IMG/VR virus record: IMGVR_UViG_2700989286_000012
DNA length: 10,458 nt
Source: a virus
Lineage: Duplodnaviria; Heunggongvirae; Uroviricota; Caudoviricetes
Strand: one strand, 5' to 3'
Part shown: piece by piece, positions 1 through 10,458 of the stretch
Layout of the letters: each line of letters opens with the position of its first letter
Position numbering within the stretch: the first letter of the stretch is position 1
Made by a program: the position numbers and the translations under genes
The notes under the pieces: model-generated
Told to the model about the DNA's origin: nothing
Databases searched by the model: none
The model's input: only the letters and a program-made list of their open reading frames with translations

Positions 1-516
1 CTAAAAAATATAACCCGTTATTATCCTGAAAATATGCCATATGGTAATAATGTTCAGTATTTCCAGAGTGAAGATGGTAAGGATTTCTACGAATCCCTGC
101 CATTATTCACCAAAAAATATAAACTTTGCATAACACCTGACAGCGGCGTTATCTGCTCAATATCACAGGACGCCTCGGCGCTGTATCCTGCGGGGTTTTC
201 TGTGGTTGAGGTCGATGAACTCCCTGAAGGCACGGATATTTCAGGAAACTGGAAGTTTGATAATGGCATAATCTCCCGTATTCCGGTTAACTACGCAAGA
301 AAACTGGAAGCAATGCGCCAGTCATATCTTAATCAGGCATATGAAAAAATTAATGACTGGAGAACGGAGCTACAACTGGGCACCATCAGCGATGAAGACA
401 GAGCAGCACTTACCCAATGGATGGCATACATCAGTCAGGTGAAGAAAATGGAACTACCCGCCATTAAAACAGAAGCTGAATTTAACGCCATTAAATGGCC
501 TGAGCAGCCACAGTAA
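1..516 (+). CDS. Tail fiber assembly protein (Tfa / Mu U-like chaperone), probably 5'-partial at the window edge
   Basis: The C-terminal half (...ISDEDRAALTQWMAYISQVKKMELPAIKTEAEFNAIKWPEQPQ) has the conserved Tfa C-terminal pattern ending WPEQP. The first in-window ATG is at 34, but the frame stays open from 34 back to position 1 with no in-frame stop, and no Shine-Dalgarno precedes ATG-34, so the true start is probably upstream of the window. Stop codon TAA at 514..516. Confidence 0.75.
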   Translation, partial: LKNITRYYPENMPYGNNVQYFQSEDGKDFYESLPLFTKKYKLCITPDSGVICSISQDASALYPAGFSVVEVDELPEGTDISGNWKFDNGIISRIPVNYARKLEAMRQSYLNQAYEKINDWRTELQLGTISDEDRAALTQWMAYISQVKKMELPAIKTEAEFNAIKWPEQPQ

Positions 517-519
517 TAA

Positions 520-539
520 AGAAGGCCGGAAGGCCTTCT
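520..539. terminator. Candidate bidirectional intrinsic terminator hairpin between the convergent Tfa and tail fiber genes
   Basis: Perfect 8-bp stem AGAAGGCC (520..527) / GGCCTTCT (532..539) with a GGAA loop, 4 nt after the Tfa stop and 9 nt after the tail fiber stop. On the - strand it is followed by TTATTA, which is only moderately T-rich; there is no clean T-run on the + strand. Confidence 0.5.
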
Positions 540-547
540 GAATATCA

Positions 548-1429
548 TTATATACTTGCAGCCGTCACCCATGCTCCATTTAACAGATACTGCAACGGCC
601 GGTAATACACGCCGCCGACGTTATCTGCCGTATTCTTACCGACATCCTGTACTTTAATTCCGGTAAGAACATTGCCGCCCCCCAGATTCAGATCCCAGCT
701 TTCCCATGTTCCGGGCATATGTGCGGTCACCGACCCCAGTCTTATGGCGGTTACTGTTCCTGATGAGATAGTGATATCCTGCGTCCCGTCAAAGGGAACA
801 CCATTAATTGTGTGGGCATTTGCCAGCCTGTTCGCGGCAACGGCGGTGCCGTCCGATGGCAGGGCATTCGCCGCCCTGTTTACCGTTTCCCGTAAACCGA
901 CGTTATCGATAAAAGCCCCTTTATCCGGAATGTCTGCGCCGTTCTGCTCCCTGCGCAGGTAACGGTTATCACCTTCGCTTTTGCTGTAAACATCCAGATT
1001 ATTACGGGCGGTTCCCTTATTCTCCAGGTCGGCGAGATTCTGATCCTTCGCCAGGGCATTAACGTCACCGGGACCAAGACTGTTTTTTGTGGCAAGCGTC
1101 CCCAGACCAAGATAACCACGGGCCAGACGCTGGGCCTCCGCACCGGCATCAGCAATTTCTTTCAGGTTATTTTTCCGGGAAAAGGCATTCGCAGCGATAA
1201 TGGCTTTAATGGACAGCGTAAGCTGGTTTAACTGCGCCTTATCCGGCTGAATACTGGCTTCAGCCAGAATATTCAGCAGTTCGGCCTGGAGAATATTCAG
1301 CCAGTCCTGACCAATCCAGCTGATACCTTTTTGTCCGTCACCTTCGGTAAACCAGGTTGTGGTATTACTCTGCGCCGGTGCCAGCGCAGGCATATTCGCC
1401 ACGCCGGAATTATTATCAACATGAAACAT
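548..1429 (-). CDS. Phage tail fiber protein (Mu S-like), with a constant N-terminal part and a short variable C-terminal part
   Basis: 293-aa ORF. The ATG overlaps the upstream stop as TAATG (translational coupling). The N-terminus ([14 protein letters not shown]...[10 protein letters not shown]) looks like the conserved tail-fiber N-terminal attachment region. An invertase crossover-like site falls at codons 173..181 (FIDNVGLRE), leaving about 117 aa distal to it. Confidence 0.8.
887..912. other. Putative DNA-invertase crossover site (gix/hix-like) inside the tail fiber gene
   Basis: TTCCCGTAAACC-GA-CGTTATCGATAA: two imperfect 12-bp half-sites around a 2-bp core. It matches hixL (TTCTTGAAAACCAAGGTTTTTGATAA, recalled from memory) at 18 of 26 positions and gix even more closely as I recall it. 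Its position corresponds to the constant/variable junction of Mu-type fiber genes. Confidence 0.55.
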
Positions 1430-1989
1430 TAAATAGTCTCCTCTTCATGGCTGTTTGCATAAACGTAAATAAACGTCTGCCATGCAGGCTTATAACGGTT
1501 CAGAATACATTCCAGCGCACCGCCTTCATAAATACGCAGCGGCGTGAGAATATCATCCAGCACATTCATATTCCGGTAGCCGGTTTCACTGTTAATCGTG
1601 ACAATACTGACCCACTGCGAATCCGGTGAGGGCTGAATGTCAATCTGATAACCAAACTCCGCCGCAAACCGGATATAAAATTCACGGTTCAGCGAGGGCT
1701 TCATCCGGTATTTATTTCCGGCATAACGCTGTCGCTCCGTGAGGGTGGCTCCGGCCATATCACACTCGGGAAGCCCGAGATAACGCTCCCAGTCTTCCAG
1801 CAGCAGGCGCGACGTGTCAGGGAAACGCTCGGCAAGCAGCTGTTTACCCGTCCAGGATACACGCGCTGTCGAATGACTGAGGCCCAGACATAATGATGCC
1901 AGTACGGATGACGGACGCTTGTCCCATGCCAGCCCGTCAGGCAGTAACTGCAACAGGGCGCGCTGATGCGGGGTCAGGGTTACAGCCAT
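1429..1989 (-). CDS. Baseplate protein, DUF2313 family (Mu gp48-like)
   Basis: 186-aa ORF placed between the J-like baseplate gene and the tail fiber, as in Mu. The start ATG at 1989 overlaps the upstream gene's end by 10 nt; its stop overlaps the fiber start. Confidence 0.75.
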
Positions 1990-3062
1990 GTGATTTCTCC
2001 TACCGTCAGCAGCTCACTGTCTCCCGCCTGAACTGACGTCAGCGGACTGCGCACTTCAAAATCCTCCAGATTTTTCACCCCTGCCACCGCCCGCCAGAAA
2101 GACGACGGCAGAACCAGACCGCCGGGCCGGGATTCGTTATACAACAGGTCGGTCAGCGCCTGTTTTACGGCCGCCTGATTCTCCGGTGTTTTCGGGATGA
2201 TCCTGATGCTGAAGGGCACCGGCTTATTGGTCAGTTTAAACACGGTCACCGTCGGCCCCAGAGGCTGTCCGACAGGCTGGCCGGTCGCCGGATCATCATG
2301 ACTGCGGATATAATCCGCCACCCGCTGAACATCACCGTCACCGGGGAAAATATCCGGGTTATTATCCTGAACAAACGTTACCCCCACGCTGCCCGCCTGC
2401 GGCCATTCCGGGCGGCACCATGCCCGCGTCACGCCCGGCACTTCACGCGCCCAGCGTTCAAAATCATACTGCGTGCCGCCGGACGGTGGATTCTGCACCC
2501 GGAAAACCAGACGGGAAAGCAGCTCCGGCACGGTTTCCACATCCGCACCACCGGTGATCCCCGTTCCGGTCACCGTGGCCGTCTGGTTGATCCCCGCCTG
2601 CGGTGTGATAAATGTCAGTTTTGTCCCTGCCGGGGCATTCCCCGCACGACCGGCACTTTCGGCTTCCACACTGACATTCAGCGTACCGGCCTTACCGGTC
2701 AGGGAGGTGGTGATACGGTAAACCACGCCATCACTTCGCTGGAGAAGCACACCTTCCTTGATCCCCGCATCCGTGGTCAGCATCAGCTGAACCGGCCCGT
2801 CCCCCCGAGAGGCAGGCTTACGCATGACGCCCCAGAATGCACAGTGTTTCAGCAGTTCGGCTTCATCGGCTTCGGTCGGGATGATCTGACGCGCAATCCA
2901 GGCCAGATGCTCATGCTCCTGAGCAGATAACCCTGCCTGAGCGTAAGCAATGGCATTCAGGGTGGTTTCATTCACACCCGGCTGCGAGCCGGGCAGGCGC
3001 TGGCTGATATCCTGCTGTGTCTGCGTGATTAACTGTGCCAGCGGTAAAGGCTGATAAGGCAT
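1980..3062 (-). CDS. Baseplate J-like protein (Mu gp47-like)
   Basis: 360-aa ORF of the size and position expected for the J-family baseplate wedge. Its start at 3062 overlaps the upstream stop as TAATG. Confidence 0.8.
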   Translation of the reverse strand: MPYQPLPLAQLITQTQQDISQRLPGSQPGVNETTLNAIAYAQAGLSAQEHEHLAWIARQIIPTEADEAELLKHCAFWGVMRKPASRGDGPVQLMLTTDAGIKEGVLLQRSDGVVYRITTSLTGKAGTLNVSVEAESAGRAGNAPAGTKLTFITPQAGINQTATVTGTGITGGADVETVPELLSRLVFRVQNPPSGGTQYDFERWAREVPGVTRAWCRPEWPQAGSVGVTFVQDNNPDIFPGDGDVQRVADYIRSHDDPATGQPVGQPLGPTVTVFKLTNKPVPFSIRIIPKTPENQAAVKQALTDLLYNESRPGGLVLPSSFWRAVAGVKNLEDFEVRSPLTSVQAGDSELLTVGEITWL

Positions 3063-3499
3063 TACTCCCCCTTAAGATCAGCATAAAAAATCATGGGCCT
3101 CACTGAACCATCAGGCAGGGTTATGCGCACCGAAAGCGCCAGCCGCGCGTGTCCCACACGTTCTGCATGACAGACCACGGATGACGCCACGCCATCCTGA
3201 CTGAGCCAGCCCAGCGCCTCATCCGCGTAAGCACGGGCACGGCTTATCACCGAGGCCAGCGTTTTTTCCCGGCTGAGAAGCCACAGACGGGAGCCAATGG
3301 GGCGCGGGCGAAAACTGTCTCCCCACCATCCCCGGCGGTCGCGCGTACCGTCAGGGATTTCATCCGATGCCAGCGCCCGGCGGTCAGTAAACAGCGAAAT
3401 CAGAACGGCCGTCAGCAGACTGTCATCCGTCAGCAGGTCGGCACCGTTCAGTTGCAGCGAACCGCATCCCTGATCCCACACAATTGCAATATCAGCCAT
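3062..3499 (-). CDS. Baseplate protein, GP46 family (Mu gp46-like)
   Basis: I place the start at the ATG at 3499 (MADIAIVWDQG...), preceded by an AGGAG Shine-Dalgarno about 9 nt upstream and overlapping the gp45 stop in the ATGGCTGA arrangement. The longer ORF-track version (to 3643) would overlap gp45 in another frame and is rejected. Confidence 0.75.
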   Translation of the reverse strand: MADIAIVWDQGCGSLQLNGADLLTDDSLLTAVLISLFTDRRALASDEIPDGTRDRRGWWGDSFRPRPIGSRLWLLSREKTLASVISRARAYADEALGWLSQDGVASSVVCHAERVGHARLALSVRITLPDGSVRPMIFYADLKGE

Positions 3500-4103
3500 T
3501 CTCCGGCACTCCTGTCTTACTGCCTTCGCCGTTATCATGATGCACATGGCCGGAATACCGTATCCCTGCAATAACGGCATCCGACATTGTGAACAGTCCC
3601 TGAGATTTCCCCGTACCCTCAAGCGCGAAATTACCCTTAACATGCAGGTTCTTATCCACCGTCACATTGCCCGTAAAGGTGGCTTCCGGCGTATCCACCC
3701 GCATCCCCTCGTCGGCGTAAATCTCCAGCATTTTGCATGTCACAATAATGCGGCCATCCTTTGTTAACCGTATCCGGTGCCCCTCATGGTGATACACCCC
3801 CGTATCTCCGGCTGTGAGTCCGGTCGGGCGGCTGCGCCGGTCTTCCACCACAAGCACCACAGTCTGATCCCGCTGTCCGCCCAGACAGGCAAAAAAGGTT
3901 TCCGCACCCGGCAGGGGAACGCTGATCTGCCCGTACTGCTGGGGACGCTCCACATCATCAAAGGTTTCGCCGTCCATGCCGGTGAGCTGCACATTCTGCA
4001 TTTTCAGTTCGTCATGTGTGCCGGTCAGAACGCCCCGGCCAAACAACAGGCGAATACCGCGCGTTACCGGGGCAATCAGGCGGCTGAACACTTCATCATT
4101 CAT
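3492..4103 (-). CDS. Baseplate central spike protein (gpV / Mu gp45-like)
   Basis: The ORF track starts at a TTG at 4106; the adjacent ATG at 4103 (MNDEVF...) is the more likely start. It overlaps the P-like gene's stop by 8 nt. The C-terminus carries a His cluster (SGHVHHDNGEG) of the kind seen at metal-binding spike apices. Confidence 0.8.
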   Translation of the reverse strand: MNDEVFSRLIAPVTRGIRLLFGRGVLTGTHDELKMQNVQLTGMDGETFDDVERPQQYGQISVPLPGAETFFACLGGQRDQTVVLVVEDRRSRPTGLTAGDTGVYHHEGHRIRLTKDGRIIVTCKMLEIYADEGMRVDTPEATFTGNVTVDKNLHVKGNFALEGTGKSQGLFTMSDAVIAGIRYSGHVHHDNGEGSKTGVPENG

Positions 4104-5220
4104 CAAAGCTGATCCCCTGTTTTTTCATCTGCTGGCGAATAAAGGCATCAACATCGTCACCGGAACCACCCCGGCCCTTACTGTCCGGCTCTGCCGGAAC
4201 GATAAAGCCGTCACGCGGTGCCAGTACCAGCCGGGTGACTTCCCCGTTATGCTCATCAAGTAAAAACTCCACCTGACAGACCAGCAGTTCAGTCTGTTCT
4301 ATACCGAAACGCAGGGCTGAAACACCGGTCAGCAGATTGACATCCCATAACCGGCCATCATCCCGGAACCAGCCACGCACGGTGGCAGAAAACCGTTCTG
4401 AACGGGCAATCGCACGGCGCATTTCACGCAGGGCACGCTGCCGTGCACCGGTGATGTCTGTCTGTTGATCGGCGAGGATGATTTTCGGCCGGTAGCGGCC
4501 GATCTGCTCATCACTGATGACGCCCACAGGTGCTGCCAGACGGGCGGCGGATTCGCTGTCTCCCCGTTTGCCACCACCGCGCCCGTGTCCCCGGACACGG
4601 TATTCGCTGTATCGTCCTCGCCAGTCCGTGTTGTAATCGGCATCAAGCAGGTTATCTCCCAGCACCAGTCTGTCCGTCTGCTGGCTTCCTGCCTGGGTGA
4701 ACACCAGATCGCCGTCAGCATTACTGGTCACCAGCACCCCGCGATGCCGGGCAGCACGGGTCAGCGCATCCGCCACGGTTTCTGAGTTTTCCAGCGTAAA
4801 AGAGCTGAAGGGGCGTGCAGCCGTGTCGTCGTTAACCTGCCAGCGCACGGCTATCCCGAAGGGCGCACATAAATCTGCGGCAATCTGTGCCAGCGTCCGG
4901 TTGCGCCACTGGCTGCCGGGATGGATGGCGGCACAGTCCACCAGGTCGCCGGTTTTATCCCGACCGCTGATGCTGATCTGATGACGGGTTGCACTGATCC
5001 GCTGACTGACCTGATCCAGCCAGCCACTGATGACCGTCTGCCCGTTAATTCTGAGCGTCAGGGGCTGACCGGTCCGCAGGGCTGAGGGGATGCGCTCACC
5101 GGGCAGCATCAGCCCCAGTTCAAACGACCCGGCCAGATGCTCCAGCGAGCGACGGACGCTGACCGTCAGCCAGCCGGAAAAAATACTGCCGCCGATATAC
5201 AGTTCAATCCTGCTGCTCAC
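4096..5220 (-). CDS. Mu P-like tail/baseplate protein (late control D family)
   Basis: 374-aa ORF. The start is a GTG at 5220, preceded by a strong GGAGG Shine-Dalgarno 6-7 nt upstream, and overlaps the 3' end of the N-like gene by 17 nt. Position and size fit Mu P. Confidence 0.75.
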   Translation of the reverse strand: MSSRIELYIGGSIFSGWLTVSVRRSLEHLAGSFELGLMLPGERIPSALRTGQPLTLRINGQTVISGWLDQVSQRISATRHQISISGRDKTGDLVDCAAIHPGSQWRNRTLAQIAADLCAPFGIAVRWQVNDDTAARPFSSFTLENSETVADALTRAARHRGVLVTSNADGDLVFTQAGSQQTDRLVLGDNLLDADYNTDWRGRYSEYRVRGHGRGGGKRGDSESAARLAAPVGVISDEQIGRYRPKIILADQQTDITGARQRALREMRRAIARSERFSATVRGWFRDDGRLWDVNLLTGVSALRFGIEQTELLVCQVEFLLDEHNGEVTRLVLAPRDGFIVPAEPDSKGRGGSGDDVDAFIRQQMKKQGISFDE

Positions 5221-6562
5221 TGATCACCTCCACGCGGCGGCCACCCGGAACAAAAACCGGATCGGGGATATTGTTTCTGCGGACAAAATACTGCCAGCGG
5301 CGGCTGTTACCGGTGGCACGGTACAGCGTGACCAGTGCCGGTTCGGTGGTTCGCACCATGACCTGAAAAGCACCGGGAAGATGCACGCTCCGCGTGGTTA
5401 AATCTTCTGTCAGCGCAAGCCCTGCATCACGTAATGTAAGGGCGGTGCCGGTATGGCCCTGTGCGGACAGATCCAGCACCTGTTGTTCCATGACATCGCT
5501 CAAATCCCGGTTGATACGCTGCACATCAGCAGAACTTTCCAGCCAGGCCAGTCCGCCCGCACGGTCAGTATCCTGAACGTGCGTCGTATTCTGCCGGATG
5601 ACCTGATCCAGCAGTTTTCCGACCGTCTGCGCCTGCGACACCAGGGCTGCACTCTGCATGACGCTCCGCAGCAGACGGATATTGTTCTGTGCCGCAGGCG
5701 TCAGACCAATCAGGCGCTGTGGATCATCCTGTTCGCTGAGGGTGTAACGCAGGGAGGAAAGTGTGCGGTACAGCTGCGGCATGGCCTGCTCTGCTATGCT
5801 GTCACGGTTTGTGGTCAGGCTGCCGGACGGCGTTCCGGCTTTTCCGGTCAGAGACAGGGAAGGATCGCCGGGCAGCCCGGTCAGCACGGCAAACATTCCG
5901 GCCAGCGATTCAGCCATGCGACGGGGCGCATTAATCAGGGCGGCGGCATTGCCTTTCAGGGCAGTAAAACTGGCCGTAAAGGCACTGATATCCTGCACAA
6001 TCCCCATCCCCGAAACGGCATTCTCCAGTGCATCAATCTTATCGCTGATGGTGTCGGTCATGGCCTGTACATCATGCAGACCGTCTGAAATCACCGTCCA
6101 GCCGTCTGAAAGCGTGTTAAACAGCTGATTCATTGCTGAGCCGCTTTTCTGCTCCAGCGCAGCTGCCGTATCTTCTGCCACCGCAGGGGCGGTATCGTCA
6201 CTGGCGGGGATCACGTTGATCGTGAACTCAACCGTTCCCTGCTCGCTGGCGTTATAACGGCTTTCAAAGCTGTTTATCAGCACGTTTAACGTGCCGTAAT
6301 CCGGGTGCATCAGTTCACCGGCACCGGGTGCACGCAGCGCATCACGCAGGCGGCTTCGCTGTGTCTGAAGATCGTCTCCGGTCACCAGAACCGTGAATGT
6401 GAACTCCGGGAGTTTTGGCCCCAGATCATCCGCACCGCCGCTTTCACGCAGTGGGTATTCACGGCGCACAATGTTACGTCCGCCCCGTTCCCGCTGCTCC
6501 TGATAAACCAGGAACGGTACGCCACGAAAGGAGCCACGCCCCGGCGTGTCAGTAGAGGCCAT
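5204..6562 (-). CDS. Mu N-like DNA circulation protein
   Basis: 452-aa ORF immediately downstream of the tape-measure gene, as Mu N is. The start ATG at 6562 has a GGAGG Shine-Dalgarno 5 nt upstream and overlaps the tape-measure 3' end by 14 nt. Confidence 0.8.
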   Translation of the reverse strand: MASTDTPGRGSFRGVPFLVYQEQRERGGRNIVRREYPLRESGGADDLGPKLPEFTFTVLVTGDDLQTQRSRLRDALRAPGAGELMHPDYGTLNVLINSFESRYNASEQGTVEFTINVIPASDDTAPAVAEDTAAALEQKSGSAMNQLFNTLSDGWTVISDGLHDVQAMTDTISDKIDALENAVSGMGIVQDISAFTASFTALKGNAAALINAPRRMAESLAGMFAVLTGLPGDPSLSLTGKAGTPSGSLTTNRDSIAEQAMPQLYRTLSSLRYTLSEQDDPQRLIGLTPAAQNNIRLLRSVMQSAALVSQAQTVGKLLDQVIRQNTTHVQDTDRAGGLAWLESSADVQRINRDLSDVMEQQVLDLSAQGHTGTALTLRDAGLALTEDLTTRSVHLPGAFQVMVRTTEPALVTLYRATGNSRRWQYFVRRNNIPDPVFVPGGRRVEVISEQQD

Positions 6563-8327
6563 AGTTCCCTCCGTTCCAGACGTTCACATCCAGGCCATGC
6601 TGTGCGGTATCATCCACATCAATACTGCGCGCCCGCCAGCCTTCAGGGGCCACAAGCTCCACCCGTGCGGCGGTTTTCGCGGTGGCCTGTCCGCCGTTTT
6701 CGTCACTGCCGCCACGCAGTTTCTGCCAGGCCTGCGTCAGCCAGCCCCCCAGATAATCACCGAGATAGCTGCCCACCGTGGAACCAATGGCAACCCCGAC
6801 CGGACCAGCAGCCGCCCCCAGCGCGCCACCGGCGATACTTCCGGCAAGGGAACCCACGGCACCGGCTTTATCGGCTGCACTGGCGCTGCTGTCCAGCAGT
6901 ACAGGAGCCGCCATGGCACCGGCCCACAGGGCACCACCACCCAGCCGACCGGCACCACGGAACAGCCCGGCAAAACGCCCCAGCCCCATGCGGTTTCCGG
7001 CCGCCGTTAGCAGACCACCGGCACGGCTCATCATACGACCGAAGAAGCCCTGTTTACCGGCACTCTCCGCCAGTTGCTCACCGGCAGTCACGACGGTCGT
7101 GACACCCCGTCCACGTCCGGGGCCGCGTTTTTTACGGCCGCGCACGGTTTTGCCGTCACCGCTGACCACCACATCCCCGCCACCTGAGGCCAGGCCACCC
7201 GCAGGCCAGTTGGTGACCAGCACGGGCTGAACGGCAGCCGGATTTACCCCGGTAAGGAAATTCAGGAACCGGCCAGCGCGTCCGGGCTGCGTTCCCGGTA
7301 CAGTGGTCTGCGGTTTGCGGAAGGGCGACGTCAGCACGGAGGTCATCGCCATGCCATAGCGTAAGGGGGTTGCGCCGAGACGTAATGCTCCCGTCCCCGC
7401 AAACCTGAGCACCTTCAGCGCACGGGAGGCGAGATACATATACATCAGGTACTTTGCGGCGGTCTGCGCACCCTGACCAATGCGATCCAGCGCATCGCCA
7501 TAACCGGCGTCGCGCAGTGCCTGAAGCGTTTCCCTGACTTTCTGAATGACCCGGTAAAAGCCGGTCGCAGCGTCTCTGGCATACTCAAATCCCTGATTCA
7601 GGGCTGAGGCCGTCTGTGTGGCCAGCTTATCCTGTAAGCCGCTTTTCTGTGCCGCATCAGCATAATCCAGAAAGCCTTTCAGGCTCTTTTTCAGGCTGTC
7701 AAACGGTCCCTTTGCCATCACCTCGCGGGCAAATCCGTCCCAGACATCGCCCATCATGGACGTCATTCCCGTCCAGGAATTCATGGCGTTTTTCTGGGCA
7801 CCTTTTGCCTGTTCGGCCATCACCTGAAATAACAGGCGAATGCTGTCCGGTCCCAGTTTTCCTTTCTCGCCTTTCTCACGGATGATCTTCTGGTTTACAC
7901 CCAGCTTATCGGCCAGCAACTGGTAAACGTTAATCCCGTATCCGGTCAGAATATTGGCGTCCGCTGCCTGGATACTCTGGCGGGCAAACATCTGTTTGAG
8001 TTGCAGGGACGCACCCTGTGCATCTGACAGTGACCAGCCGTGATAGCCGCCCTGATCCTGAAGCATGGTAATAAAGCGACGGGCTTCCCTGTCACTCATA
8101 CCGAACCCGCGACTGGAGGCGTATTCCTGCATAACCCCCGCCAGCCCCCAGGTGGTGTCTTTGGCGTTCTGTACCGCCCAGGCTTTCACTGCTTCCGTTT
8201 TTGCCGTATCGCCATGATTAATGGCGTTGAGACGCAGAATATAGTTCTCCATCTCTGCGGCCGGGCGGATAAAGGCTTTATTAAACCCGTAGACCGCAGC
8301 CCCTCCCGCCAGCATCCCGTAAAGGTT
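6549..8327 (-). pseudogene. Tail tape-measure protein, 5'-truncated remnant
   Basis: Long ORF with a Gly/Ala-rich C-terminal region (GGALGAAAGPVGVAIGSTVGSYLGDYLGG) and an RGRKKRGPGRGRG stretch typical of tape-measure proteins. The frame is open up to 8387, but sequence above about 8330 is transposase coding DNA read in another frame. Neither the GTG at 8387 nor the ATG at 8315 has a recognisable Shine-Dalgarno. How much of the N-terminus is missing is unknown. Confidence 0.65.
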
Positions 8328-9456
8328 GCTTATCCGAGTAATACAGAAACGGTTTGCCGTGATGGCGAATGCCGTGCTGTATGGCACCGGCTACGGCGAA
8401 AACATTTTCAGCCAGGTCAAGGCTCCAGCCCACCACAAAGCGCGTGCCACCGTCGATAACAAAGGTCACTTCCGGTGCAAATGGCCGACCGTGAACCGGG
8501 TGTGCGCATTTCAGCTTCATGCCGTGACCGTCACCAATCCAGACATAATTCACCGGCATTTTTGACCAGTCGCGGCGCGTGAATCCCTCAAGCTGGCGGT
8601 ATTCACTGCCGGTCACCCGGCCTTTTTGTTTCACCACTTCCGGCAGTTTCTTCATTGCGCGGCGAATGGTGTCATAAGACGGCATGATATCGAGCATATA
8701 AGGCTCATCAGCGTGCCGGTGCTGCCATTCAGCGACAAAATCCTCGTAAGCCTCGGTCATTGGTCGGCCGTTTGACTGGCGATACTGCGCCAGAAATTCG
8801 GGCAGCCAGTTAATATCTTCGGCTTTTATTTCCTGGCGCTTACCCGGTGCCAGTAAAAGCAGGCGTTCAGCGGCGTTCTGCGCCTTGTTAAAGGCCGCAA
8901 TCCAGCGTTTCAGCGTGATTTCACTTAACGCGCGGCTGTTTCCCTTTTTGGCGTTCGCCGTCTCAACCATTGCCACAATGCGCTCGTCCAGCTGCGAACG
9001 TGCCAGGTTGTCAACGATAAACCGGATAGCCTTCGCACAGCTGAAACCAGGTTGTTGCGCGACTTTCAGAACTTCGCTGACGATCGCGATTCGTGCATCA
9101 GCCACCTGGCGCTGGTTTTCAGTCAGGGCATTAAGGCGTTCGACCATCAGTTGTGGTGATCCGCGATATGCCTCCACCGCATCAACCACGGCAGGCGAGC
9201 GTCTGGCCTTTGTCACCACTGGAGCCGGTGATTCATCGACTTTTTGAGTCATCAGTTGCAGGGCGTAGCGTTCACGTAATGCCTGCTGCGTCACTTCAGG
9301 TAAACAGTCGATGCTGTATTCAGTTGCTTTAGAGCCTGAGCGACGACGGGAACAACAGCTTTTCCCTTGTACGTAACGTTGTAATGCCTGGCGAATACCT
9401 TTTGTTGTAGCAGGCATTCCGGGCGCGCCAATCAGTTCTTTTGCAATGACATACAT
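8281..9456 (-). pseudogene. Mu A-type DDE transposase, N-terminal 391 codons only
   Basis: The N-terminus (MYVIAKELIGAPGMPATTKGI...SGSKATEYSIDCLPEVTQQAL) parallels the MuA enhancer-binding domain as I recall it. WIGDGHG aligns with the MuA first catalytic Asp region (INGDGY) and FLYYSD with the second Asp region. The frame then runs 14 unrelated codons to a stop at 8281, so the catalytic Glu and the C-terminal domain are missing. The start ATG at 9456 sits 1 nt after the ner stop. Confidence 0.8.
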
Positions 9457-9457
9457 A

Positions 9458-9706
9458 TCATGACGCCTTTCTCATATAGCTCTTAACCTGGTATCGACTG
9501 GGCCAGATTTCTTCAGGCGATACCCCAAGAGCATCAGCAATTATTTGCTGATACGGTCGGCAAGGAGTACGTAATACGCTTTTCAGCGAATCCCTGCTGT
9601 AACCAGCCTTTAAAGATAAAGAGCGCAGTGATAAGCCAGCCATGTGTAAGCGCGCCTTGATGATTTCAGGCGGCCAATCGTGATCTGAAACTTCTCTTCT
9701 ACTCAT
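9458..9706 (-). CDS. ner: Ner-like DNA-binding protein (Ner/Nlp family)
   Basis: 82-aa ORF with the DW...GLSLRSLS...QQIIADALGVSPEEIWPSRYQ pattern, which closely resembles Mu Ner and E. coli Nlp as recalled. It lies immediately upstream of the transposase gene and divergent from the repressor. A GAGGA Shine-Dalgarno precedes the ATG at 9706. Confidence 0.85.
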   Translation of the reverse strand: MSRREVSDHDWPPEIIKARLHMAGLSLRSLSLKAGYSRDSLKSVLRTPCRPYQQIIADALGVSPEEIWPSRYQVKSYMRKAS

Positions 9707-9726
9707 ACTTCCTCTATTCTAAAAAG

Positions 9727-9765
9727 TTACCCGCGCGGATATTCGTGCGGATATCTGTACGGGTA
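9727..9765. promoter_or_regulatory. Candidate operator cluster in the ner/repressor intergenic region
   Basis: Inverted repeat TTACCCG (9727..9733) / CGGGTAA (9759..9765) enclosing two direct copies of GCGGATAT (9736..9743 and 9748..9755) at a 12-bp period. It lies just downstream of the candidate early promoter -10 element. Confidence 0.4.
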
Positions 9766-9766
9766 A

Positions 9767-9796
9767 ATAATAGAACAAACAAAAGAACCAAATCAA
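9767..9796 (-). promoter_or_regulatory. Candidate early promoter (Pe-like) driving ner and the transposase
   Basis: On the - strand, -35 TTGATT (9791..9796), an 18-nt spacer and -10 TATTAT (9767..9772), with a predicted start near 9760. Identified by eye only. Confidence 0.3.
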
Positions 9797-9873
9797 GGTA
9801 TTTTGTTCTTTTTATTCTTTGCGGTGTTTTTGTTATTAATATCAATAAGATAAATAAAAAGGAACCTGAGAGC

Positions 9874-10458
9874 ATGAACATGAAAAACAGTTCTTTTCTC
9901 GACGAAGGAAAAGAACCAGTGATCGAACGGATTTTTCGTCTTGCAGAGCGTTACAAATCGAGAAGTGAGGCGGCTAGAGCATGGGGAATAAACGTTCAGA
10001 CATTGCAGAACTACTACAAAAGGAGAAACAATCAGCCGCCACCACAACCAAGAAAGCACCATCTCCAGAACATTGCAGAAAGAGAACATGTATCTATGGA
10101 GTGGCTGGTCAATGGTTATTGTGATGAGCCAAGCATGAAAAAAGAACCAATTGAACAAACAAAAAGAACAAAAAAACAAAGAATTGATGATAGTGATTCC
10201 ATCATCATGAGGGCGTGGGACTCGCTAACTTCATCTGAACAAGAGATTTTGTCCAACTTATTGATCAGAAAAGGGGCCGAACTACTAACCGTTTTGCTTG
10301 ATACAGATATTCAAAAACTGCACTCATTGAGCGGAGTCAAAAGAGCACTAGCATTGAGTCTACAAGAGTTACCCGATGATACTGTAAGAGAGATTTATGA
10401 AGAATGTGAAGCTAAGGTTAATCATTTAAATGTAACCCAGAAAAAGGCTGGTGCGTAA
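9874..10458 (+). CDS. Putative prophage repressor, positional equivalent of Mu c (HTH DNA-binding protein)
   Basis: Transcribed divergently from ner across an AT-rich control region, as Mu c is. Likely start is ATG 9874 (MNMKNSS...) with AAGGA about 10 nt upstream; ATG 9880 is an alternative. The N-terminal segment SRSEAARAWGINVQTLQNYYKRR looks like a helix-turn-helix. The upstream in-frame extension to 9745 runs through the operator region and is rejected. The family is uncertain; it does not obviously resemble Mu c. Confidence 0.65.
   Translation: MNMKNSSFLDEGKEPVIERIFRLAERYKSRSEAARAWGINVQTLQNYYKRRNNQPPPQPRKHHLQNIAEREHVSMEWLVNGYCDEPSMKKEPIEQTKRTKKQRIDDSDSIIMRAWDSLTSSEQEILSNLLIRKGAELLTVLLDTDIQKLHSLSGVKRALALSLQELPDDTVREIYEECEAKVNHLNVTQKKAGA

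Follow-up and report, generated by a model that had tools for sequence, protein, structure and literature searches.

The DNA analyzed here, a stretch of 10,458 nucleotides referred to as the window (IMG/VR record IMGVR_UViG_2700989286_000012), is the left end of a Mu-like (Sp18-type) prophage of Escherichia coli from which the middle 22.8 kb has gone. Six-frame open reading frames (ORFs) and Pfam matches revealed genes ordered as in a Mu-like phage, except that the middle part is absent: a divergent repressor gene, c, and the regulatory gene ner are followed by a truncated copy of the transposase gene A, termed A′, which is joined to tail and baseplate genes. Contig CCCJ01000160.1 (assembly GCA_000945895.1), once reverse complemented, was identical to the window, and on this contig the host genes fur-fldA-seqA-pgm adjoin the c end of the prophage. 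Membership of the Sp18 type was indicated by the order attL-c (divergent)-ner-A, by tail and baseplate genes of the Mu type and by a non-fixed insertion site, the host flanks varying among copies of this prophage. Sp18 of E. coli O157:H7 strain Sakai and its relatives, for example, the prophage at 4891-4925 kb of NZ_OZ547136.1 (designated L002) and Phi804-3 of FRIK804, have the same gene order and are 99.4 to 99.9% identical to the window at the DNA level in c, ner, the N terminus of A and the tail genes. Unlike these relatives, the window lacks 22.8 kb and is inserted elsewhere, next to pgm. Sp18 has been described as intact and spontaneously inducible (PMC2669165), and the full Mu gene order is present in L002.

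The extent of the deletion was apparent from a comparison with L002. Megablast alignment yielded two blocks, window positions 1-8336 (tail genes) and 8330-10458 (early genes), which overlap by 7 nucleotides (nt) in the window and lie 22.8 kb apart within the apparently intact 34-kb prophage of L002. The first block was 99.4% identical to L002 2987-11322, window position 8336 being equivalent to position 11322 of L002, where the full tape-measure gene occupies 9535-11592. The deletion is internal, clean and 22,792 bp in length. At the junction the window reads ...tattactCGGATAAgcaacc, as compared to ...tattactCGGATAAcggctcc in intact A and ...atcgggCGGATAAgcaacc in the intact tape-measure gene; aligned across the junction, the three sequences are ...TATTACTCGGATAAGCAACC for the window, ...TATTACTCGGATAACGGCTCC for intact A and ...ATCGGGCGGATAAGCAACC for the intact tape measure. 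Codons 376-696 of A, the gene for a MuB-like ATPase, kil, gam, other early genes and Mor were removed from A and the early region and, further on, the lysis genes, all of the head, sheath and tube genes and the first 90 codons of the tape-measure gene. What is left consists of attL, c, the operator region, ner and A(1-375) with 16 additional codons, joined to the tail and baseplate genes. A single illegitimate-recombination event across CGGATAA took out the 22,792 bp and left a remnant unable to transpose, replicate or kill its host; we infer that deletions of this sort are to be expected among the survivors of prophage derepression. As the source is a short-read draft assembly whose contig finishes inside the invertible tail-fibre segment, the junction could have been an assembly chimera representing no existing molecule. 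The junction was, however, seen in four contigs of three assemblies plus an IMG/VR entry, its 7-bp overlap is far below the k-mer sizes of assemblers, and analogous junctions (described below) are present in independent NCBI, ENA, Logan and IMG/VR assemblies, making an artifact of this type extremely improbable.

A first-pass annotation of the window had described the 391-codon ORF as a transposase fragment. This was correct for codons 1-375, while the last 16 codons are foreign, being derived from tape-measure DNA. The intact parent is a protein of 696 amino acids (aa), found in L002 and in a second intact copy, L001. The parent has all three catalytic residues and clusters with the Sakai protein A0A0H3JJZ5, and the A′ protein is in the same 90% cluster as that protein. 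This parent was collinear with MuA (gene A of AF083977) along its full length, over 585 columns (hhalign probability of 97.9%, ∼22 to 27% identity; BLASTP E value of 5e-11) and resembles MuA in having a Mu-type N-terminal DNA-binding domain, equivalent D-D-E positions and a Mu-transpos_C domain. A phmmer search of the parent against PDB sequences found retroviral integrases and not MuA; the MuA homology comes from BLASTP and hhalign with the Mu sequence. Retention of the N-terminal DNA-binding region, as originally proposed, was borne out at the sequence level by a Pfam HTH_Tnp_Mu_1 match to residues 6-143 of the 391-aa ORF (28.6 bits against a cutoff of 23.3), collinear with MuA domain I, and the same ORF matched PHROG 310 ('transposase') with an E value of 1e-115 over profile positions 8-350 of 696. 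When the domain boundaries of MuA were taken from PMC3362531, A′ was found to span domains Iα, Iβ and Iγ and the first part of the RNase H-like core.

The further proposals that the full catalytic triad is absent and that the DDE core is only partial also held. By BLASTP and hhalign, D309 (WIGDGHG) pairs with MuA D269 and D375 (YYSDNG) with MuA D336, and both are kept, while E415, located in GRGIIERLNR, lies beyond the junction; the first third of the catalytic core is retained. E415 was aligned by phmmer with the VERANR motif (E157) of Rous sarcoma virus integrase, its equivalent in MuA being E392. Gaps around this residue were set differently by hhalign, but every placement still leaves the glutamate past residue 375. 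Unlike MuA, the ORF of the window stops at the equivalent of D336 and is without E392, the rest of domain II and all of domain III, and the Mu-transpos_C domain detected by Pfam at residues 533-593 of the parent is absent from the 391-aa ORF. The lost C-terminal domains are needed by MuA for assembly of the tetramer and for contact with MuB and ClpX. In intact relatives A is followed by the gene for the MuB-like ATPase (annotated 'AAA family ATPase'), while in the window the truncated tape measure comes next. A structure model of the fragment had predicted local distance difference test (pLDDT) values of 70 to 89 at residues 1-70 and 100-270 and of 24 to 40 at residues 273-391. A full-length control modeled from the same shallow alignment was equally poor over the core, and these models are uninformative on the folding of the truncated core; a Foldseek search of the model against the PDB returned noise only.

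The deletion in the window is a single recent event in one clone. The 2,129 nt of the early region contained two differences from L002, one a synonymous change in codon 10 of A′ and the other a polymorphism in c, and A′ differed from intact relatives by 0 or 1 substitution. The exact 391-aa protein was present in three draft assemblies from NCBI (GCA_000945895.1, GCA_000938575.1 and GCA_000939695.1; four contigs) and in IMG/VR entry L030 (9,047 nt), which is identical to one of the carrier contigs (L004). The carriers were 100% identical over up to 9 kb, with A′ invariant among the three assemblies and the sole two mismatches located near a contig end, outside A′. By megablast, the junction was detected in none of 5,426 complete E. 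coli genomes, 248 of which carry this phage type, each with a copy that is uninterrupted across the site; there were likewise no matches to the junction among GTDB species representatives. As the event is recent and clonal and A′ does not vary among the carriers, there is no signal of retention, and the comparison of nonsynonymous and synonymous substitution rates (dN/dS) that had been suggested for this fragment has no data to work on.

The left breakpoint of this deletion was found to recur. At least six independent deletions, that of the window and five others, share the left breakpoint CGGATA(A), in codons 374-376 of A and hence at the second catalytic Asp, and several of the truncated relatives recovered by protein search finish their transposase part exactly at ...FLYYSD375. 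The five further deletions are at five different chromosomal sites, giving six sites when the window is counted, and the deletions at this position span two phage lineages whose A′ proteins are ∼68 to 70% identical. While the left end is fixed, the right ends are 7.6 kb to >34 kb distant, one of them being in a host gene (Table 1). In intact DNA the partner sites read CGGATAA, tGGATA, CGGcTAA, CGGgTA, CGG-TAA and ccTTA, a similarity of 2 to 7 nt, and the joins are clean. The tails encoded beyond the breakpoint differ in every event, ranging from junk peptides of 16 and 33 aa to in-frame fusions of 132 to 203 aa with fragments of Mor, the DUF6645 protein, the protease or LsrC. Truncations at other positions, with contig ends excluded, numbered about four or five (codons 284, 406, 514 and 628 and one frameshift). 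By our estimate, the location of five or six of ∼11 events at one codon of ∼430 is far beyond chance. In IMG/VR, 39 copies were intact across the site and 2 had deletions starting at it; pattern scans of GTDB genomes, JGI metagenomes and IMG/VR recovered as junctions only L030, which has the event of the window, and L031, which has a new event.

Four draft contigs, one from Salmonella and three from E. coli, stop exactly after ...TATTACTCGGATAA (CGGATAA), at position 4127 in L043 and position 2624 in L045, L046 and L047. Contigs stopping at ...CGGATAA come from assemblies GCA_034218795.1, GCA_025428535.1, GCA_033743635.1 and GCA_011951265.1. These contigs have four distinct insertion sites and host flanks, indicating that the left part is single copy in each genome and that its continuation is repeated or heterogeneous. 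The simplest reading of the recurrent breakpoint is a mutational hot spot. As the tails differ while the breakpoint is precise to the nucleotide, a mutational mechanism is indicated rather than selection on a defined product, since a breakpoint could not be set to the nucleotide by selection acting on a protein; the shape of the A′ fragment would then reflect the hot spot and not selection for a product. The hot spot may be the part of this work that is new. A literature search on deletion hot spots in Mu-like prophages found nothing relevant. The locus itself adds a new allele to a familiar class, that of defective transposable prophages with a transposase pseudogene. As found, the remnant is ordinary, and its chief need is for correct annotation: a pseudogene of the transposase that runs, out of frame, into a tape-measure gene lacking its start.

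Table 1. Features of the window and other deletions sharing its left breakpoint (positions of the latter are those of the breakpoint in the named copy)
Feature	Position	Strand	Evidence or remark
Late genes: DNA-circularisation gpN-like, baseplate gp44-48-like, tail fibre, part of invertible tail-fibre segment	1..6562	-	Pfam, annotation of L002
Tape-measure gene minus first 90 of 685 codons	6549..8336	-	Pfam TMP_3
391-aa ORF: transposase A codons 1-375 plus 16 out-of-frame tape-measure codons	8281-9456	-	ORF list, Pfam, alignment
Foreign codons 376-391 (KQPLRDAGGRGCGLRV, 8284-8331) and TAA stop; tape-measure DNA in the wrong frame	8281..8331	-	Sequence comparison
Junction and breakpoint: 7-bp microhomology CGGATAA	8330..8336	-	Common to A codons S374-D375-N376 and tape-measure codons 91-93
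Transposase A codons 1-375 (MuA residues 1-336)	8332..9456	-	Pfam, PHROG, BLASTP, hhalign
ner, 82 aa, intact	9458..9706	-	Pfam HTH_35 (Ner type), E 2.5e-19
Divergent c-ner regulatory region, 167 bp	9707..9873	.	Base-for-base identical to intact L002
Putative ner ribosome-binding site AGAGGAAG	9715-9708	-	
Tandem ATATCCGC repeat, possible Ner or operator site	9754-9747 and 9742-9735		Downstream of candidate promoter
Candidate early promoter TTGATT-18-TATTAT	-35 9796-9791, -10 9772-9767	-	Promoter scan
c-type immunity repressor gene, 194 aa, intact	9874..10458	+	PHROG 3037 'transcriptional repressor', E 1.5e-58, full length
Deletion in L007, ∼34 kb	∼7125		Partner: DUF6645 gene near right end of prophage
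Deletion in L008-L010, ∼7.6 kb	∼7125 (L008)		Partner: start codon of Mor
Deletion in L011	∼7122		Partner: DUF2730 gene
Deletion in L031, ∼17 kb	∼1403		Partner: protease/scaffold gene
Deletion in L032	∼7122		Partner: host gene lsrC, past prophage end

With regard to the origin of the hot spot, a DNA end could be repeatedly created or exposed at the A site and then join similar short sequences downstream. We consider it quite possible, though somewhat short of probable, that a specific event at CGGATAA fixes the left end and that the 3′ end ...CGGATA(A) then anneals to such sequences, an explanation that concerns origin only. One possibility is that an insertion sequence (IS) targets CGGATAA and is later removed with flanking DNA by a microhomology search of the IEE type; another is a protein-protected nick or break at CGGATAA. 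A left end identical to the nucleotide in six events with scattered right ends, clean junctions at short similarities in every case and the termination of four draft contigs from four other insertion sites exactly at ...CGGATAA are all consistent with a specific event. IEE-promoted excision of IS elements, with extended deletions at microhomologies, is known in enterohemorrhagic E. coli (PMC9943667; bioRxiv 10.1101/2023.06.07.543989) and resembles the deletions described here in having one fixed end, variable far ends, microhomologies of 2 to 6 nt and the same host group. In contrast to that system, no IS is demonstrable at the A-gene site, making IEE a candidate mechanism only; no IS was found at the site in any sequence examined, and all of the 248 complete genomes with this phage type have a copy that is uninterrupted there. 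If a specific mechanism does make the breakpoint, it would explain the disarming and fixation of transposable prophages in enterobacterial genomes and would provide a simple sequence marker for disarming events.

Other causes were examined and set aside. A pseudo-site of the phage invertase was rejected, as the hot spot shares only GATAACG with the gix-like sites and the crossover is off the predicted center. Hairpin potential at the hot spot was not notable (z-scores of −0.5 to −1.7). A transposition-type adjacent deletion from a pseudo-end is unlikely, similarity to the real phage ends being at the level of chance; moreover, for five of the six partners there is similarity to the A site on the upstream side of the join, a resemblance not required by transposition. 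A mosaic boundary between lineages was rejected because identity is 0.83 to 0.88 on either side of the hot spot. Exact matches to TTCTGTATTACTCGGATA(AT), of 18 to 20 nt, were observed in unrelated marine, Flavobacteria and phage contigs (L015 and L036-L042), and in L015 and L037 this sequence encodes ILYYSDN within an unrelated protein. These matches are attributable to chance, as a rough estimate gives ∼17 expected occurrences of an 18-mer in the 596-Gb collection.

Additional rearrangements were observed in several of the remnants. In L031 another ∼5.2 kb is missing through a second deletion, for which the overlap is 11 nt (∼5931-5941), and comparison of L011 7123-7722 with L044 revealed a 244-bp gap. 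In L008 there is a further break in collinearity at ∼13294-13306, due either to deletion or to phage mosaicism, and the segment beyond it is only 76% identical. Remnants formed at the hot spot may still be losing DNA. In IMG/VR genome 2585427751, L031 is present alongside two copies that are intact across the site (L051 and L053), indicating that remnants and potentially active relatives reside together in one genome.

The ner gene was retained, as had been noted, in the form of an intact ORF directly upstream of A, its product being 43% identical to Ner of Mu; this ner was identical to that of L002 and to an allele on about 1000 contigs. A single nucleotide separates the stop codon of ner from the ATG of A′, equal to the spacing in Mu. 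The early promoter region, which had been described as intact, is unchanged from L002 throughout the ner-c intergenic interval. The promoter scan detected one site, no more than in shuffled sequence, and this site is a candidate only. By analogy with Mu (annotation of AF083977), roles may be proposed for the promoter, the tandem repeat and the ribosome-binding site of this region. For the repressor, the start at ATG 9874 was adopted from RefSeq annotation of the identical gene (a 585-nt coding sequence in L001 and L002), the mechanical ORF being longer and starting at GTG 9745. The exact repressor protein was found on at least 1000 contigs, including those of complete genomes; a G83C change in c was rejected as a private mutation linked to the deletion and is not a lesion, as at least 1000 contigs have C83. 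In its N-terminal part, this repressor bears no relation to Mu c. Residues 94-191 of the repressor matched the Mu-c-like PHROG 7148, as did residues 3-76 of the transposase, and the arrangement of Mu, in which c and A share an operator- or enhancer-binding domain, may be absent in Sp18-type phages.

If control follows the pattern of Mu, the A′ ORF would be transcribed from the early promoter alone, and this promoter should be off under the intact c repressor. We infer that A′ is probably a silent by-product of a hot-spot deletion and that repressor immunity is the only likely activity of the remnant, whose phenotype would be immunity to homoimmune phages. The first-pass annotation had raised two alternatives, a trans-dominant inhibitor of incoming phages and inert debris, of which the second fits better. 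An inhibitor consisting of a DNA-binding transposase stump is mechanistically conceivable: A(1-375) would bind Sp18-type phages, whether incoming or resident, at their ends and perhaps at the enhancer, would poison transpososome assembly while catalyzing nothing and would be retained for its contribution to immunity. The whole region collinear with MuA domains Iα, Iβ and Iγ is kept, the structure model has pLDDT values of 70 to 89 over residues 1-70 and 100-270, ner, the promoter region and translational coupling are intact, at least six remnants independently have the A(1-375) endpoint, and targets exist, as several Mu-like prophages are often present in one genome, with up to eight or nine matching places. 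On the other side, the carriers are clonal, recent and rare, the fragment stops in the middle of the RNase H fold and may be unstable, and the variable tails and nucleotide-precise breakpoint argue for a mutational mechanism. In addition, with c intact and the early promoter off, ner-A′ would be silent in the very cells needing an inhibitor; a heteroimmune phage would not displace the resident repressor, so that A′ would still not be made. PADLOC gave no match to models of known defense systems and Rfam gave no match, and a literature search on dominant-negative truncated MuA found no report of such inhibition for Mu. For this locus, each indicator open to computation was thus neutral or negative, and on balance an inhibitory role for A′ appears very unlikely.

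Truncated transposases that act as inhibitors are familiar from other elements, namely, the KP repressor of the P element, Inh of Tn5, InsA of IS1 and OrfA of IS911. These proteins have a DNA-binding or multimerization part without catalysis, a property that A′ would appear to share at the level of its sequence, and KP, like A′, arises from internally deleted elements. Their expression and inhibitory action have been demonstrated, and each is either a designed product of its element or has spread in populations. A′, unlike them, has its promoter under an intact repressor, was found in three clonal assemblies and is a putative product only. On a broader version of the inhibitor idea, the recurrence of A(1-375) would represent a recurrent host route that converts Mu-like prophages into immobile c-ner-A′ modules, with the stump kept for interference with related phages as a bacterial counterpart of KP. 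The recurrence extends to two phage lineages, with E. coli and perhaps Salmonella as hosts, and we regard this version as highly improbable. Were the stump active, a purely hypothetical case at present, superinfection interference of a new kind would be involved.

Several points weigh against A′ being a silent by-product. The exact recurrence of A(1-375) could in principle stem from selection and not from a mutational hot spot. Repression by c is assumed from Mu, and the N-terminal part of c in the window lacks homology to Mu c. With ner, the promoter, the ribosome-binding site and the coupling of ner to A all intact, a lapse of repression would yield A′. In MuA, the N-terminal domain by itself is able to bind the enhancer as well as the ends of the phage, so that A′, if stable, could be a competitor at the ends.

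At the opposite end of the window, the remaining late genes are without their activators, as Mor and the upstream late region are gone. Gene callers place the start of the truncated tape-measure gene at an internal ATG (8315), and a 588-aa call is carried by L003. Both the window and its source contig start within the invertible tail-fibre segment (window 1-1430), in which the tail-fibre gene (548-1429, minus strand) and a gene for tail-fibre assembly (34-516, plus strand) point toward each other. In the intact relative, this segment is flanked by gix-like sites, TTCCTGAAAACC-TC-GGTTTACGGGAA and TTATCGATAACG-TC-GGTTTACGGGAA (L002 2556-2581 and ∼3873-3898).

The termini of the prophage were located at 5′-TGTAACCAGG... 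on the left and ...CGCCGCGCTATA-3′ on the right (L035 ∼1425-1440; L007 ∼9880-9900; L003 ∼7920). The right terminus appears to finish in TA, as opposed to CA in Mu. In the two cases looked at, just 4 bp of flanking duplication was unambiguous (CTAA and TACA). The TTTGATACC sites correspond to the attL and attR repeats.

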